A stretch of DNA of 64,000 nucleotides, taken from positions 22,704,954 through 22,768,953 of the forward strand of contig CP154954.1 in NCBI GenBank assembly GCA_039621445.1. Direction: 5' to 3'. This document shows positions 19,601-59,600 of the stretch, one piece after another. The translations under genes were made by a program, and so were the position numbers. The notes below the pieces were generated by a model. That model was not told the DNA's origin and made no database searches. It saw nothing but the letters and a program-made list of their open reading frames with translations. Position 1 is the stretch's first letter; every line of letters starts with the position of its first letter. This DNA is from Euglena gracilis (lineage: Eukaryota).

Positions 19601-21001
19601 CTAGGCCTGTGCAAATCAAGGTTTCCGGTGTGACTTCTGGACTTCTGGAAATTGTCTTGTACGTAAATATCTCATATGGTCCCAGCAACCCTAAAAAACC
19701 CTATATTAATCCTAATTCTGCGTCCAGTCCGAGTTACGCCAGTTTTTTTGAGCCCAGGTCCAAAAAACGGTACTGTAAAACAGGGTCCACCTGCCAGCAA
19801 AAAAATTGTATTTTGGACCAACTTCCCAGGGTTGCCAAGTCATCAAAAGGGCCCGTTAAGAGAATTCAAGGCCGTTCAATCTAACCGTAATTGGCTTTCC
19901 TGGTAACTCCATGGCCATCAAAATCATAGCCCATAATCCACAGCCCCTTTTTTGACAAGTTTTTCAGCGATTTTTTGGCCCACTTTGGCCCAAATACAGG
20001 CCAAAATAATACACACACACACACACAAACTTGAAAATATCTCGAAAACGAATCAAAATCAAAAGGAAGAATTCTTGAGGTCAATTGAAGCCCTTGAACC
20101 CCTGTTCGAACGGTATCTTGACTTCCCAGCAACTCTTCACCTGGCCTGAGACATGGTCAATTTACGCCCCAACACAGCGCTGCAGGCTTCCAAGTCTGCT
20201 GTTTTCGGCCATTTTGGGGTAAAAAAAAACTCGATTCCTCAATTTTTTTTCTCGAAAATGATGGGGAATAAAAGGAAATGTCTTGACCCAAAATACATAT
20301 GGGCATAGAAACGCCCCATGACACAAGAAATGGCAATTTTTAGACCAATTTTGGGCCGCTTTTCAGGCCAAAAAAATCGGGTAATGCCAAATGTCTTAAA
20401 AATAATATATAAATAAAATAAAGCGAAAACGTCAAAGCAATCAATCAATCAAAATGTCAAAAATCAAGCAAAATGTCTGGCTGGGGTGTGCAAGACCGGG
20501 CCTCGCCGGGCCAGGCCGCCTGGCCAGGCCAGACCGACAGCCAGGCCGGGCCGAGCCAGTCGGTCTGCCAGGGGCCGATGGGCAACAGGGCTAACGACCG
20601 GGCATGTTGCTTTTTGAAACAAAGAGCCCGGAACAAATCAAAACCTGGTAAAGAACACCCTACGGCCAGATGGTCCAGGCCATACAACGTTTGGAGGGCA
20701 GACTTGCTGAGGCAGGTGATGACGTGGGTGGTGTCCCCCTGCACCGCGGCCTGCACCACACCCCCGTGCTTCTGGACCAGGCTGGAGGGGGCCCCGGGCA
20801 CCAGGCAGGGCGGCCACTCACTTGGTATGCTCTGCCTGCAGGGGGGGCCCGGGGCCCGGCGCACAGCATCTGGGCCCGCCGCTTCCCCATCGCCCGGCCC
20901 TCCGCCTCCACCACCATCCGCAGCCCGGCAAACGGCCGCTTCGCTGCCGCAGGCGGTGGCGCAGCGGCGGCCGATTGCCGGTCGGCGGCGGAGCGCCGCC
21001 T
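10608..21001 (-). CDS. POLL: DNA polymerase X family, lambda-like (BRCT + lyase + palm), multi-exon, incomplete at both ends
   Basis: BRCT exons 21001-20861, 20783-about 20664 and about 16940-16775 (PFAGLRMVV...GKRRAQMLCSLVQKHGG...TTHVI...VTPEWVS). Core exons with GT-AG: about 13045-12811 (GDHWR), 12448-12367 (KYAYGKAIGVL), 12032-11943 (GIGPKIAAKVEEIL), 11733-11662 (IWGVGPATS), 11317-11181 (GFRSIEQL...RIPRAEV), 10799-10690 (CGSYRRGASTSGDVDILI). Linker exons at 13080-16010 are uncertain. Confidence 0.9.
12540..12760. repeat. (CA)n/(CACG)n microsatellite
   Basis: Direct inspection. Confidence 0.95.
14308..14712. repeat. (CCCA)n + (CA)n + (GA)n compound microsatellite
   Basis: Direct inspection. 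Confidence 0.95.
17720..18143. mobile_element. hAT-like MITE, TIR CATAGCTGGC, perfect 8-bp TSD CAGCCTGT
   Basis: TSD at 17712-17719 and 18144-18151; 10-bp perfect TIR. Confidence 0.9.
19248..19405. repeat. Near-perfect 158-bp palindrome
   Basis: Arms of about 75 bp (GGTGGTGTCT...AATGGATGG / CCATCCATT...AGACACCACC) with few mismatches around an AAAATATTTT centre. Confidence 0.92.
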
Positions 21002-21443
21002 CTGGAACGGTAAGAAAATGGGGGCACAGGGGAAGGGGTTGTGTCGAAAGATTTGGAGCTCTTGTTTCTGCAGACAATCCCCGTCCTCCCAATTCCCCAC
21101 AAGACCGACATGTGCATTCGTTTTACTGTATGAACAAATGGCTTTAAATATCCTTGGGCGCAAAGAACAGCCGCAGAGCTTTTTGATGCTTGCCAAAATG
21201 TGGTGCCATCAACTTGAATGGAAATACACCATCTGACAGGTTGTTCTGTGACAGTACTTTTTTTCACCCCTCATCATCCCATGCGTTGGGGAGGGGGCTT
21301 TCCCCCTCCATAGAGCGCTGACCCTCCTGCTTCGTTGGGCTCAGCAGCTCCCCGGGTCGCCAGCAGTTGGGGAGCGCAGCAGGAAGTGACAGACGGACTG
21401 GACACTGCAGAAATGCCAAAAAACAGTAAAATGCAGGTCACAT

Positions 21444-56600: not shown

Positions 56601-59600
56601 AGTGACAGACGGTATTTCGGGGCCGGTGGATTTTGTCCTGTGATGGCCCGCCGTTGCGACCCAATACAACGACTACTTGACCTGCAGTGGCCACGGTCGG
56701 GTGGGTTGGGCTCCGGCCTGAAATGTGCCTGCTGGGATCTGTACCCAGCCCCCCCCCCCCCATCCACCAGGGAATTTCTAGAAGCCGAAGGGACTCAACA
56801 CTCGGGGGAGGGGTCCAGCCAGCCAGCAGCTCCCAACCATGCCACAGACACCCCCCCCCCCGGATCCGTCGAGATACAGCTGGGACCAGTCCTGCACAGC
56901 CGGGCAGAAGAATTACTTGGCACAAATCAACGAAAAGTTTCGAAGGGGGTCGAAGGGTGTAAATGTGGTGTAAATTTTTGCCAAGAAATCCCACCCCAGC
57001 TGGTTTCGGCCAGTTTTGTTACCCAGGTCCTCCCTGCTGGCCGGCTGGACTTGAGCCCCCTCCCCTCCAGCCAGCACCTTTTTCTCGCCGCTGGCTGGAC
57101 TCCTCCTCCTCCTCCTCCTCCTCCTCCTCCTCCTCCTCCTCCTCCTCCTCCGTCTCCTCGTCCCCCTCCTCCGCCTCCTCCGCCTCACCCCCCACTGCGC
57201 ATTACCCCCCCCCCCTATGTCCAACGACCCCCCTATGTCCAATGACCACCCCCCCGGTCAGAGGACACCTTTTCGGAGGTTTGACCAAATTTTTGGTCCC
57301 GGCGTGAAGCGACGGGACGAAAAAAAGTGCCCAAAAATTGGCCAAAAATTTGGCCAAAATGCCATTTTTGACACTTTTTGGACAAAAATTTGTCAAAATT
57401 GCCCAAAATTTTCGGCGCAAAGCGCCGGAAGGGAAAATTTGGGCATTTTTGGGTGGGTAGGGACCCGGGTACCCACCAACTTTCTTTTGACCCCATGTCC
57501 AACGACCACCCCCCCCCCCCCGGTCAGAGGACAGAGGTTACCGGTCATTGGACATAGGGGGGGGGGGTACGAAATTCCCTGCCTTTGCCCTCATCTTGGT
57601 GGGTGTCGACCCCCTCCCTGTTTCCCCCTGTTTGTCTGGGGGTATTGATTTCTCGGTTGAGTTTTGCTTCGGCGCCTTCGGTGGCGAAGGGATTCTCCCT
57701 TGCAAATCGCATGGTGGTGGTGGTGGGGGGGGGTCCACCTCTCCTCACCTGCTCTTCTCGTACAGCCCTGGCCGCACCTCCTTTTGAAGCGCTTCCTTTT
57801 TGCAAAGAGGTGTGTGGAACGCCCTTGGGTCTTGTGTGGCAGGGCAGTGTCCTGACCCCCCCCCCCACAAGCATTTCCTCAATCCCCATTCCCGGAGCTT
57901 CATGTGTGCGGGCGGGCCGGGGCCCACAGGGGACGCCGACGGCAAGTGTGTGTGCAAGCCCCTCTGGAAGGGCTCGGACTGCAGCCAGTGCGCCGGCTTC
58001 TCCGTCATGGGCGGGTGCGTAAGCCCCAGTATGACGGCCACCTCGGCCCTGACGCCCGGTGATGGCCAGTATCTAAAAAGGTGCTTCGGAGGGAGAAAAG
58101 GTGTTTTTGCGGAAAAGAGTTTTTTTGGCTCACATCGGTTTCTCATTTTGAGACCCAAAGCAACTTATTTTAATCCTGGATGGTTTTATTTTTTGTTCTG
58201 AAGCGATGCAAGGTCCCCACCTTGGGTGGTCTTTTTATGTATAAAGTGTCAGGCTTTTCTTTTTAGAGAACTGATTTCACTTACAGACACGAATGGAGAC
58301 AAAGAAAGGAGGTTAAAGAACGATGGCACTGGGATCATTTCCCCCAATACACCGCCTTTGCCCTTCCAGTCTGGGTTGACTGGGGATGATGGGTCCCCCG
58401 CCGGGGAAGGGGACTGTTGTCAGTACTGTATCCTGTCAGAGTCCTGTCCTGGCATTTTCCTGGGGGGATTCCATTGGGCCGGCAATTTCCACCCCTTGAA
58501 GCAGAACTTATGAAGCGCAGCGGGGCAGGCGGTTGCCCTCCCCCCCCCCTCCTGTGCTCCGGCAGTCGGCTGGCCGGGGGCGTAAAGGGTCAATGGGCCC
58601 AGTTGATGTCATCCATCCTTGCGTTATTTGCCACGCTGGTGGCCGATCAGGGCCGGCCGGCGCGGTTTTGACCTGGTTGTCCGCGCCACAGTTTGCGAGG
58701 TGAGGATTTATGGCACCCCCCCCCCCCCTGGCATTTCTTTTCACGCACCACCCGGACCAGGCATTTGCTTAAGGGATTGCAGTACCCCCCCGGGGGGAGG
58801 CTGGACTGCAGCTAGTCCAAATTTGGCTAGTGGGATTTCTAGCAGACCCCCCCCCCTGGGGGAGGTCTGCTAGCAGGGCTAGCTAGCGGAAAAAAAATTT
58901 CCAGTGACCGGCGCAAGGCGCCGATTTTTTTTGGGACCCCCAAAATGGCCAAAAATGCCCGTTTTTGGCCATTTTTGGAACAAAATCAGCCAAAGACCTA
59001 TTAAAAACCTCATTTTTCCAGTTCGGGGGACCCCCAGACCCCCCTCCCCCCCGGGGGGGGGAGGGGGGTGTAGCTAGTCCATTTTTTCCAGTGTCTAGCC
59101 GATTGGCTAGCCAGTACCCCCCCCCCGGGGGTCCTTAAGCAAATGCCTGACCCGGACACTGAGACACCGGGAATCGCCAATTGATTCACAGAAAGGGGGG
59201 GGGGCACTCATCCAGCTGTTCAATATCTTCCCCAGGTCTGGGGAATATCTTTGGAGTCAATGCCCTGATTTTTGGCCACATGCCCCCCAGGGCGTATGGA
59301 AACGAAGTGGTCGAAGGCACGGACCTCATCCTTGTAATTCCGTCAGCCCGCCCCGGAGACTTTTTGCCTGTCGACCCCCCTCCCGATGGGGAAGCGAACG
59401 TTGCTGGATGCCTGCCACCCGAAGTGGCCCCGAACCCCCTGCCCATCCTCGGCTGGCCGACCCGCCCTGCCCCCGGGCTCTCCTGCGGCTGCCTGGCGTG
59501 GGCCGTGGACTCCGCCCGCCGCCCGACGTACCGCGCGGCGGCCCACCTCAAGCCCACCGGGCCGTCGTACAACACGTTCGGGGACGACGGCGCCGCCTCC

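Follow-up and report, generated by a model that had tools for sequence, protein, structure and literature searches.

Where do the nonconventional (NC) introns of euglenids come from, and what sets the positions at which they are cut out of RNA? Their origin was still called unclear, and the machinery that removes them unknown, in a 2025 paper on their splicing code (Nomura 2025, PMC12501133; this paper, PMC3935182, PMC4770533 and PMC8101967 are cited throughout for the parts of their texts that were accessible). We address the question in a 64,000-nucleotide stretch of the Euglena gracilis genome (assembly GCA_039621445.1, contig CP154954.1, positions 22,704,954 to 22,768,953 of the forward strand; hereafter the window), GC-rich eukaryotic DNA with many microsatellites that holds both NC introns and MITEs (miniature inverted-repeat transposable elements). 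The introns are probably MITE-type insertions that are spliced out along with just one of the two 8-bp copies of their target-site duplication (TSD), restoring the exon. A first-pass annotation of the sequence had claimed that splicing removes a helix-bounded element plus 8 nt behaving as one TSD copy, and the claim is well supported by three exact 8-nt junction repeats, by flank identity confined to the predicted register, by CAG...CTG elements flanked by such duplications and by one predicted intron that is itself a MITE copy.

To place junctions we mapped RNA to positions 31450-51449, using the contigs of three runs that are probably RNA (X1-X3) and the raw reads of an RNA-seq run (X21). 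The junctions at 52-62 kb and 20.7-21.4 kb were placed at the protein level, with 2-9 equivalent registers each, using the transcript-derived proteins P0002 (eukprot EG_transcript_10281, 484 aa, teneurin-like EGF repeats) and P0003 (eukprot EG_transcript_32500, 194 aa), to which the translated window exons are 100 % identical. P0002 was mapped as 15 exons between 50609 and 61831 and every split reproducing the protein was then enumerated; among transcript-equivalent registers the one reported was picked by its helix, independently of flank identity. With an identity of 95-99 %, and a residue that differs at intron 60635, the transcripts belong to a different allele or strain. Support from RNA joints or transcript-derived proteins was obtained for 23 introns, eight of those in the first-pass annotation and 15 further ones. 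Eight of the 13 non-GT-AG introns that it had proposed are thereby confirmed, three by RNA joints or reads and five by P0002 and P0003, and none is refuted. The joint 44623->45263 corresponds exactly to intron 44624-45262 with an ambiguity of 0, in three contig runs and 37 raw reads, while the joint 46776->47286 is a 509-nt skip with 8 ambiguous bases, of which intron 46781-47289 is one of nine equivalent registers. The loose end of contig X2 past 51389 continues as the sequence downstream of 52743, giving intron 51390-52743, with which P0002 is concordant. P0002 is also reproduced by 52869-54302, 54362-55705, 56704-57931 and 58645-59474, each among 2-4 valid registers, and P0003 by 20784-20860 (-), with a further intron at 20984-21357 (-) from its mapping.

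RNA joints yielded six further introns, 44414-44509 (+2), 45361-46349, 46510-46735, 47422-48346, 49539-50595 (+3) and 50674-51298 (+1), and P0002 another eight, 55828-56317, 56402-56661, 58036-58610, 59668-60141, 60191-60463, 60635-60961, 61083-61379 and 61488-61747. As a consequence of the P0002 mapping, 55706-56703 and 57932-58644, which had been taken for exons, are now seen to contain two and one further introns, respectively. For the five predicted introns of a barely expressed mitochondrial-carrier gene (32099, 32476, 35042, 36285 and 38155) no joint was present among the 15 of 161 listed, at a read depth of 1-4, and a protein search with the carrier exon 38525-38686 gave no match; single exons of this gene match the Mito_carr profile at positions consistent with the proposed junctions, with scores below the Pfam gathering score. 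GT-AG borders are found in none of the 23 verified introns and GC-AG in one.

The introns share a helix at a fixed distance from their ends. We called an intron conforming when base +4 pairs with -6 and +5 with -7, and at least 7 of the first 10 positions are paired, in one of its transcript-equivalent registers. By this measure the helix starts exactly at +4/-6 in 19 of the 23 verified introns, and one more has it at 3+6 (spacer lengths in nt at the 5' and 3' ends). It extends outward to +3/-5 in only 4 of 23, and the same pairing test at other 5' and 3' offsets gave 0-4 introns off the helix diagonal and 14-15 along the diagonal of the same helix. CAG stands at +4..+6 in 10 of the 23 and CTG at -8..-6 in nine, and in 19 the exon that follows opens with a purine. 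Among the 13 introns of the first-pass annotation the pairing of +4 with -6 holds for 12 and fails for 32476-32855, and the CAG...CTG that it described as frequent amounts to CAG at +4..+6 in six. The literature regards helix and spacers as necessary for splicing (PMC12501133), and knock-in mutagenesis there defined the code as 5'-N3CDG-/-CH'GN5-6|R, in which the 3-nt spacer is intolerant of +/-1 and the 5-nt spacer tolerates +1 (Nomura 2025). The helix register of the window introns is this code, and the geometry itself is therefore already known.

What the 3- and 5-nt spacers represent is indicated by the repeats at the junctions, whose length distribution is the strongest single fact of the case. 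In the 20 verified introns tabulated for this purpose the direct repeats measure either 0-3 nt or, in three introns, exactly 8 nt: CCCCAGCC at 46777-46784 and 47286-47293, CGACCTGC at 59662-59669 and 60136-60143, and CCCCGCCC at 60631-60638 and 60958-60965. All three are bounded by mismatches on both sides, and random position pairs in the region have a repeat of 8 or more at a rate of ~5e-4. They agree with the youngest known NC intron, intron 4 of gapC in E. agilis, which is flanked by eight-nucleotide direct repeats (PMC4770533).

A weaker similarity extends across the remaining introns. We compared L8, the last 5 exon and first 3 intron bases, with R8, the last 5 intron and first 3 exon bases. 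For the 13 introns of the first-pass annotation the matches are 3, 4, 5, 3, 1, 6, 5, 7, 2, 4, 4, 3 and 3, a sum of 50 against 32.5 from cross-pairs (2.5 each; permutation p=2e-4), so the identities it had quoted (7/8, 6/8, 5/8, 5/8 and others of at most 4) are correct and their excess over chance is real. The excess is confined to the predicted register, as shifting the right 8-mer by -6 to +6 gave sums of 21-36. The 19 verified conforming introns average 4.16 of 8 against 2.99 when permuted (p=3e-5), and 3.62 against 2.81 when the three best are left out (p=0.003). Position by position, in a 15-intron set, the excess occupies TSD positions 1-8, mainly 2-5, with -5..0 and 9..14 at background; in a 17-intron set the sum is 70 at register 0 and 37-54 at other registers. 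The permutation retains position-specific composition, so that the excess is specific to the intron.

The same 8-bp signature is borne by transposon-like elements in the window. We identified seven elements with terminal inverted repeats (TIRs), five with clean, perfect 8-bp TSDs, one embedded in poly-C and a seventh with decayed flanks; CAG...CTG ends are present in four of the seven. The three free elements already described by the first-pass annotation, at 17720, 46820 and 58758, are as it stated, both on reading the sites and in our scans. A first scan took every exact inverted repeat (9 nt or longer, within 3 kb) and looked, length by length, for an identical pair of sequences on its two sides. 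It counted 68, 21, 8, 4, 2, 2, 4, 1, 0, 0 and 0 at lengths 2-12, against shuffled means of 33.8, 8.6, 2, 0.7, 0.15, 0.1, 0, 0 and so on, and one of the four length-8 matches is a poly-C flank. A second, relaxed scan, which started from direct 8-mers and allowed one indel in the TIR, added 34127-34486 and 46820-47002 and confirmed 50106-51435. The five clean elements (17720, 34127, 46820, 50106 and 58758), where 0-1 would be expected by chance, end in CAG...CTG in two cases, CAT...ATG in two and GAG...CTC in one.

The elements at 46820 and 58758 belong to one family, 86.5 % identical over 163 nt, in which homology runs from CAG to CTG exactly and the flanks are unrelated. To judge from their sequence both would carry the complete published code, N3-CAG...CTG-N5 followed by a purine, the purine being supplied because TSD base 6 is A or G. 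The 50106-51435 structure, for which ~0.03 matches would be expected by chance, starts in intron 49540-50596 and ends in intron 51390-52743, and encloses the start codon and exons 1-2 of an EGF-repeat gene along with one NC intron. It may be an exon-carrying element, or an insertion that gained exons later.

One predicted intron, 38155-38522, can be recognised as a MITE-family copy. Along three colinear segments (81 %, 81 % and 96 % identity) it matches the element 44898-45182, which lies within intron 44624-45262, and it has further segments in common with 7572-7717, 9283-9721(-) and 56819-57094. Its 5' end is CAGGGCATTTGT, and the last 12 bases of its helix, read on the other strand (CAGGGAATTTCT), are the first 12 of element 56768-57581, which closes with the same motif at one mismatch. 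Counting this intron, the window has five or more copies, whole or partial, of the CAGGGAATTTCT family. Intron stems thus do match the TIRs of a multi-copy element, in one of the 28 introns considered.

The introns are absent from transcripts, and in most of them 3 + 5 = 8 unpaired intron bases lie outside the helix. The arms of the helix are MITE TIRs and L8 and R8 the two TSD copies in part of the introns, and presumably in the rest. A TIR element would insert and duplicate 8 bp; its TIRs would pair in the pre-mRNA; some machinery would cut outside the helix, 3 nt ahead of it and 5 nt behind, and would join the exons, so deleting the element with 8 nt and restoring the target sequence; spacer bases and TIRs would drift afterwards. 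Because the splicing system would count off 3 nt on the upstream side of the helix end and 5 nt on the downstream side, the element and exactly one copy of the duplication would be removed, and the drift would account for old introns with only 2-5 of 8 matches. It would follow that a CAG...CTG element with a purine at duplication position 6 is a ready-made intron in either orientation. At the RNA level the spliced mRNA is the predicted empty site, which is not evidence at the DNA level. The broader proposition, that nonconventional splicing is a precise RNA-level excision tuned to one kind of transposon, that most NC introns began as insertions and that ruler and transposon co-evolved, is plausible and put forward tentatively; in E. 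agilis NC introns make up more than 70 % of all introns (Nomura 2025, PMC12501133).

Several observations weigh against this reading of the introns as insertions. In the helix register the three introns with 8-nt repeats match at only 7 of 8, the sole mismatch in each being the spacer base that touches the helix (-5, +3 and -5), a pattern unlikely to have arisen by random decay. The perfect 8-mer is displaced by one base in all three, lying further on than the helix register at 46781 and before it at 59668; as the repeat period equals the intron length, a one-base offset leaves the sum of element + 8 unchanged. Carry-over of one donor-flank base occurs at transposon 5' ends in hAT biochemistry; we considered it for these introns and set it aside, since it leaves the additional match at the opposite side unaccounted for and the mismatch is absent from the five clean elements. 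Most introns retain only 2-5 of 8 flank matches, so that for them a TSD origin is a matter of statistics rather than demonstration, and the bulk of the flank signal comes from three introns. The expectation that the best TIRs go with the best TSDs is not borne out, helix length and flank identity being uncorrelated (rho 0.14, p 0.61, n=15). Four of the 23 verified introns lie outside the 3/5 geometry: 45361-46349 (3+4), 46510-46735 (2+6), 56402-56661 (3+6) and the GC-AG intron 47422-48346 (3+8). Membership of a repeat family is visible in only one of 28 introns within 64 kb, and the junctions of that one are predicted; the TIR consensus of the 46820/58758 family, allowed up to 3 mismatches, has five matches in the comparison with intron ends, none of them at an intron end. 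Pfam found no transposase domain in the 30 open reading frames (ORFs) scanned, which measure 147-460 aa and belong to a total of 190 in the window with 120 aa or more, and the sample amounts to three to four genes from one 64-kb window.

Which transposase superfamily would have mobilised the elements is a separate matter. The first-pass annotation named hAT, for which the 8-bp TSD and the CAG-type termini are the whole basis; a hAT-like enzyme is our leading guess. Its description of splicing as RNA-level hAT excision is not retained, as we found no evidence that ties the RNA reaction to transposase chemistry. The window elements resemble hAT MITEs in their 8-bp TSD, short TIRs starting CAG, small size and non-coding nature, and differ in having CAT and GAG termini too and in that no hAT transposase or autonomous partner was found in the scanned ORFs; the 30 of 190 contained no match to hAT-type domains (BED finger, DDE/RNase-H fold, hAT dimerisation) or to DDE_Tnp_IS1595. 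The hAT terminal consensus is YARNG. The CAGGG ends (22199, 56768 and introns 38155, 58645 and 60191) agree with it, while CAGGC, CATAG, CATAC and GAGAG do so incompletely. The TSDs of hAT have the positional preference nTnnnnAn, which was dropped as a criterion since the window offers too few TSDs.

The elements and introns might be as described and yet have been mobilised by Merlin (IS1595-like), by another family that duplicates 8 bp or by several families, an alternative that we consider unlikely but take seriously. Two Merlin families with 8-bp TSDs are on record in the E. gracilis genome, sharing these and near-perfect TIRs with the window elements (PMC8101967). Several intron helices begin with G-runs (20784 and 59668), a better fit to the Merlin 5'-GG than to CAG, and besides the lack of a hAT transposase in the scanned ORFs no paper was found that joins hAT and Euglena on NC introns. 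Merlin TIRs, however, end 5'-GG with a TSD of 8-9 bp, whereas the clean elements of the window begin CAG, CAT or GAG, and CAG-type ends with an 8-bp TSD have the classical look of hAT.

A different origin for the junction repeats was favoured in 2016, when the 8-nt repeats of the E. agilis gapC intron were attributed to double-strand-break repair (Milanowski 2016, PMC4770533). Repair of staggered breaks with filler DNA would require no transposition and would make the MITEs bystanders, and it sits well with the lack of detectable family relatives in the window for most introns. The repeat length is nevertheless exactly 8 in all three long cases, duplications of this length also border genuine TIR elements of the window, the repeats adjoin inverted-repeat ends, and one intron has body and termini in common with a repeat family; we regard break repair as improbable. 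It is less probable still that the flank similarity reflects a splicing preference at both junctions (pyrimidine|purine, with a C-rich 3' spacer) plus chance, with no duplication. The spacers are compositionally biased (CCCCC in four introns) and the excess without the three best introns is modest, but significance survives the composition-keeping permutation both with and without those three, and exact 8-nt repeats occur in 3 of 20 introns where ~5e-4 is expected for each. The reverse direction, in which the free elements are excised intron RNA circles copied back into DNA, has in its favour the reported excision of NC introns as circular RNAs of full length (PMC11282704, PMC12501133) and is regarded as highly improbable, because family homology stops at CAG and CTG: a re-inserted intron would bring its 3+5 spacer bases, 46820 and 58758 have different outer 8-mers, and CAT...ATG elements, which lack the splicing code, have the same TSD length.

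The reading of the introns as MITE insertions spliced out with one TSD copy is a sharpened, evidence-backed form of a published hypothesis, as a MITE origin and TSD-like repeats are already in the literature. In 2014, at a time when euglenids had no known transposon, the inverted repeats led to the proposal of a MITE-like origin (PMC3935182), and a 2024 review describes CAG/CTG as the TIR, calls the junction repeats TSD-like and the introns likely derived from MITE elements, giving neither a TSD length nor a superfamily and containing none of the terms hAT, 8-bp and 8 bp (PMC11282704). The accessible text of Nomura 2025 gives the fixed 3/5 spacers and mentions MITEs, with no mention there of duplications or hAT (PMC12501133). 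The arithmetic of 3+5=8 as a TSD, the hAT assignment and free euglenid elements bearing the code were not found in a search of the full-text literature, which did not extend to subscription papers and supplements. The window introns are members of the published class of euglenid NC introns (Milanowski 2014, 2016; Nomura 2025), with the same borders, helix, spacers, purine and frequent junctional direct repeats and no difference in kind; what is added is evidence for the 3+5 spacers as two halves of an 8-bp TSD and the free code-carrying elements.

Comparable systems are known elsewhere. Introners, the DNA-transposon-derived spliceosomal introns of Micromonas, dinoflagellates and others, likewise remove a TIR element and one TSD copy scarlessly from RNA, with splice signals supplied by the TSD or the TIR, and have produced intron gain on a genome scale; they differ in using the spliceosome, GT/GC-AG borders and short TSDs (3 nt in Micromonas; Mob DNA 2024;15:15, PMC11282704), where the window introns have a TIR helix with a fixed 3/5 ruler, arbitrary borders and an 8-bp TSD. 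The MITE-derived introns of Fritillaria borealis and Amoebophrya share with those of the window noncanonical borders, terminal TIRs with TSDs and recent lineage-specific gain, but their TSDs are 3-5 nt, a modified spliceosome is thought responsible and no fixed 3/5 ruler has been described (PMC11282704). Should the 3+5 spacer be a single copy of an 8-bp TSD, the code would gain a simple evolutionary rationale, the neutralising of one type of transposon anywhere in a transcript. Any such CAG...CTG element would then be a ready-made, orientation-independent, scarless intron, the introner principle of transposon + TSD = intron would extend to a non-spliceosomal pathway, the origin of NC introns would become directly testable and there would be a handle for finding the responsible transposase. 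Within hAT itself, Giroux is said to have described in 1994 a maize Ds element spliced as a de novo intron. Ds is spliced at cryptic spliceosomal sites, and scarless removal is not built into its design.

Table 1. Genes, introns and TIR elements of the window. Pairs are counted over the first 10 helix positions from +4/-6, flanks are L8/R8 matches, and "further" marks introns additional to the first-pass annotation.
Position	Strand	Feature	Evidence and geometry
~10.6-21.4 kb	-	PolX-like gene with BRCT region	
~31.9-38.7 kb		Mitochondrial-carrier gene	
44.0-48.7 kb		Unnamed gene	
50.6-61.8 kb		EGF-repeat gene	
17720-18143	.	Free MITE	Ends CATAGCTGGC...GCCAGCTATG; TSD CAGCCTGT twice
20784-20860	-	NC intron, BRCT region of PolX-like gene, 77 nt	P0003 ...AQMLC|SLVQKHGG...; 10/10 helix pairs; flanks 3/8
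20984-21357	-	NC intron, further, 374 nt	P0003; 9/10 pairs; flanks 3/8
22199-22735	.	MITE	19-bp TIR CAGGGATGGATGGGAAGCC; C-run flanks, TSD length unreadable
32099-32403	+	Predicted NC intron, carrier gene	Joining restores ...GGLSNAVTYSLVQPLEVIKTRMQ; CAG/CTG; 8/10 pairs; flanks 4/8
32476-32855	+	Predicted NC intron, carrier gene	+4 C opposite -6 T; bulge needed (effective 3+4); flanks 5/8; junction repeat 5 nt
34127-34486	.	Free MITE	Ends CATACCATTGCTTAAC...GCTAAGCAATGGCATG (starts CATACCATTGCTTA...); TSD GTGTCGAT twice
35042-36231	+	Predicted NC intron, carrier gene	Frame restored; GAG...CTC helix ends; 9/10 pairs; flanks 3/8
36285-36328	+	Predicted NC intron, carrier gene, 44 nt	Frame restored; 8/10 pairs; flanks 1/8
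38155-38522	+	Predicted NC intron, carrier gene, MITE-family copy	Restored frame and Mito_carr spacing; flanks GACCCGGG/GATCTGGG 6/8
44416-44511	+	NC intron, further, 96 nt, spliced in part of transcripts only	Joint 44413->44510 in X2 and 17 X21 reads; 8/10 pairs; flanks 5/8
44624-45262	+	NC intron, 639 nt, unambiguous junction	X1, X2, X3 and X21; 11-bp helix TAGGCTTCCGT/ACGGAAGCCTG; flanks 5/8
45361-46349	+	Non-GT-AG intron, further, 989 nt, outside 3/5 geometry	3 contig runs and 27 reads; helix CCACA/TGTGG at 3+4
46510-46735	+	Non-GT-AG intron, further, 226 nt	Joint ambiguity 0; CAGGG/CCCTG helix at 2+6; flanks 1/8
46781-47289	+	NC intron, 509 nt	3 contig runs and 21 reads; 9-bp helix only in this register; exact 8-nt repeat CCCCAGCC
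46820-47002	+	Free MITE nested in intron 46781-47289	Ends CAGGCTCTGCTTAAGG...CCTTAAGCAGAAGCCTG; TSD CTCGCAAC twice
47422-48346	+	GC-AG intron, further	3 contig runs and 3 reads; CAGGCG/CGCCTG helix at +4/-9 (3+8)
49540-50596	+	NC intron, further, 1057 nt, upstream of EGF-gene start codon	3 contig runs and 26 reads; CACC/GGTG helix; 9/10 pairs; flanks 3/8
50106-51435 (with flanks 50098-51443)	.	TIR structure, 1330 bp	GAGAGCTCCCA..., 15/16 bp; TSD AAAGCCGG twice
50675-51299	+	NC intron, further, 625 nt	RNA joint and P0002; 8/10 pairs; flanks 6/8 but C-rich
51390-52743	+	NC intron, 1354 nt	X2 loose end and P0002; CAGGCC/GGCCTG helix; flanks 2/8
52869-54302	+	NC intron	1 of 2 P0002 registers; 9/10 pairs; flanks 4/8
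54362-55705	+	NC intron	1 of 2 P0002 registers; CAG/CTG; 9/10 pairs; flanks 4/8
55828-56317	+	NC intron, further	P0002; CAG/CTG; 8/10 pairs; flanks 2/8
56402-56661	+	Non-GT-AG intron, further, fails +4/-6 test	P0002, 4 valid registers; helix CAACGGC/GCCGTTG at 3+6
56704-57931	+	NC intron	1 of 3 P0002 registers; 14-bp helix; flanks 3/8
56768-57581	+	MITE nested in intron 56704-57931	Ends CAGGGAATTTCT...CGAAATTCCCTG; flanks CCATCCAC/CCTTTGCC 4/8 (old copy)
58036-58610	+	NC intron, further	P0002; 8/10 pairs; flanks 5/8
58645-59474	+	NC intron	1 of 4 P0002 registers; CAGGGC/GCCCTG helix; flanks 3/8
58758-59149	+	Free MITE nested in intron 58645-59474	Perfect 17-bp TIR CAGGCATTTGCTTAAGG; TSD ACCCGGAC twice; predicted full published NC code
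59668-60141	+	NC intron, further, 474 nt	9 valid P0002 registers; 13-bp helix; exact 8-nt repeat CGACCTGC
60191-60463	+	NC intron, further	P0002; CAGGGCCTCC/GGGGGCCCTG helix; 10/10 pairs; flanks 3/8
60635-60961	+	NC intron, further, 327 nt	9 P0002 registers, one residue different (P vs Q); CAGCTG/CGGCTG helix; exact 8-nt repeat CCCCGCCC
61083-61379	+	NC intron, further	P0002; CAGGCC/GGCCTG helix; flanks 3/8
61488-61747	+	Non-GT-AG intron, further, marginal fit	P0002, 6 valid registers; 7/10 pairs; CAG/CTG reading gives 3+4

The single GC-AG intron, 47422-48346, has a C-rich tract ahead of its AG and resembles the "intermediate" type that other authors have discussed; in one contig its joint carries two additional letters (AA). 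The protein P0001 (147 aa, Logan assembly) is the translation of an unspliced stretch at 52690-52960 that begins in intron 51390-52743, takes in exon 52744-52868 and reaches intron 52869-54302; a public run thus contains RNA (or DNA) of the EGF gene with introns retained. Of the mapped reads in the raw RNA run, 92 % continue into unlike sequence, and hundreds of reads link the 20-nt stretches 34443-34463, 37664-37686 and 48484-48501 to one another or to long C-runs; these are probably pieces of the C-run/G-run palindromes inside MITEs, which would occur at a great many loci, or an artefact of the library.

Long microsatellites ((CA)n/(TG)n, (ATC)37 and (CTC)29) are located at 12537-12761, 14305-14694, 21439-21815, 30424-30838, 44789-44857, 51482-51600, 51852-51963 and 57100-57186, the (ATC)37 repeat occupying 51852-51952. 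Several lie inside NC introns, and in 44624-45262 and 56704-57931 they adjoin or truncate nested MITE copies. At 2026-3785 (-) and 10604-11386 (-), ORFs with a Dam N6-adenine methyltransferase domain of phage type (E 6e-8) and with a cold-shock domain (E 1e-6) are neighbours, and DNA polymerase beta/lambda palm and fingers domains follow beyond them; taken with the BRCT exons at 20.7-21.4 kb, the latter point to a single long PolX gene.

Other repeats include a 96-bp segment present three times, at 3798-3893 in direct orientation with 4405-4500 (99 %) and inverted with 4384-4477 (96 %), an arrangement that gives a long-TIR structure at 3838-4437, flanked by repeats of 7-9 bp. MITE ends of the CAAGGGTTTTCTTAAGCCGGAGGGGACCC and CAGGGGTTTTCTTAAGCCGGAGGGGACCC types, nested or next to one another, are clustered together with an end like that of 22199 at 8700-9800 and 15480-15700, and indicate that the CAGGG...TTCTTAAG families are related and have several copies outside genes.

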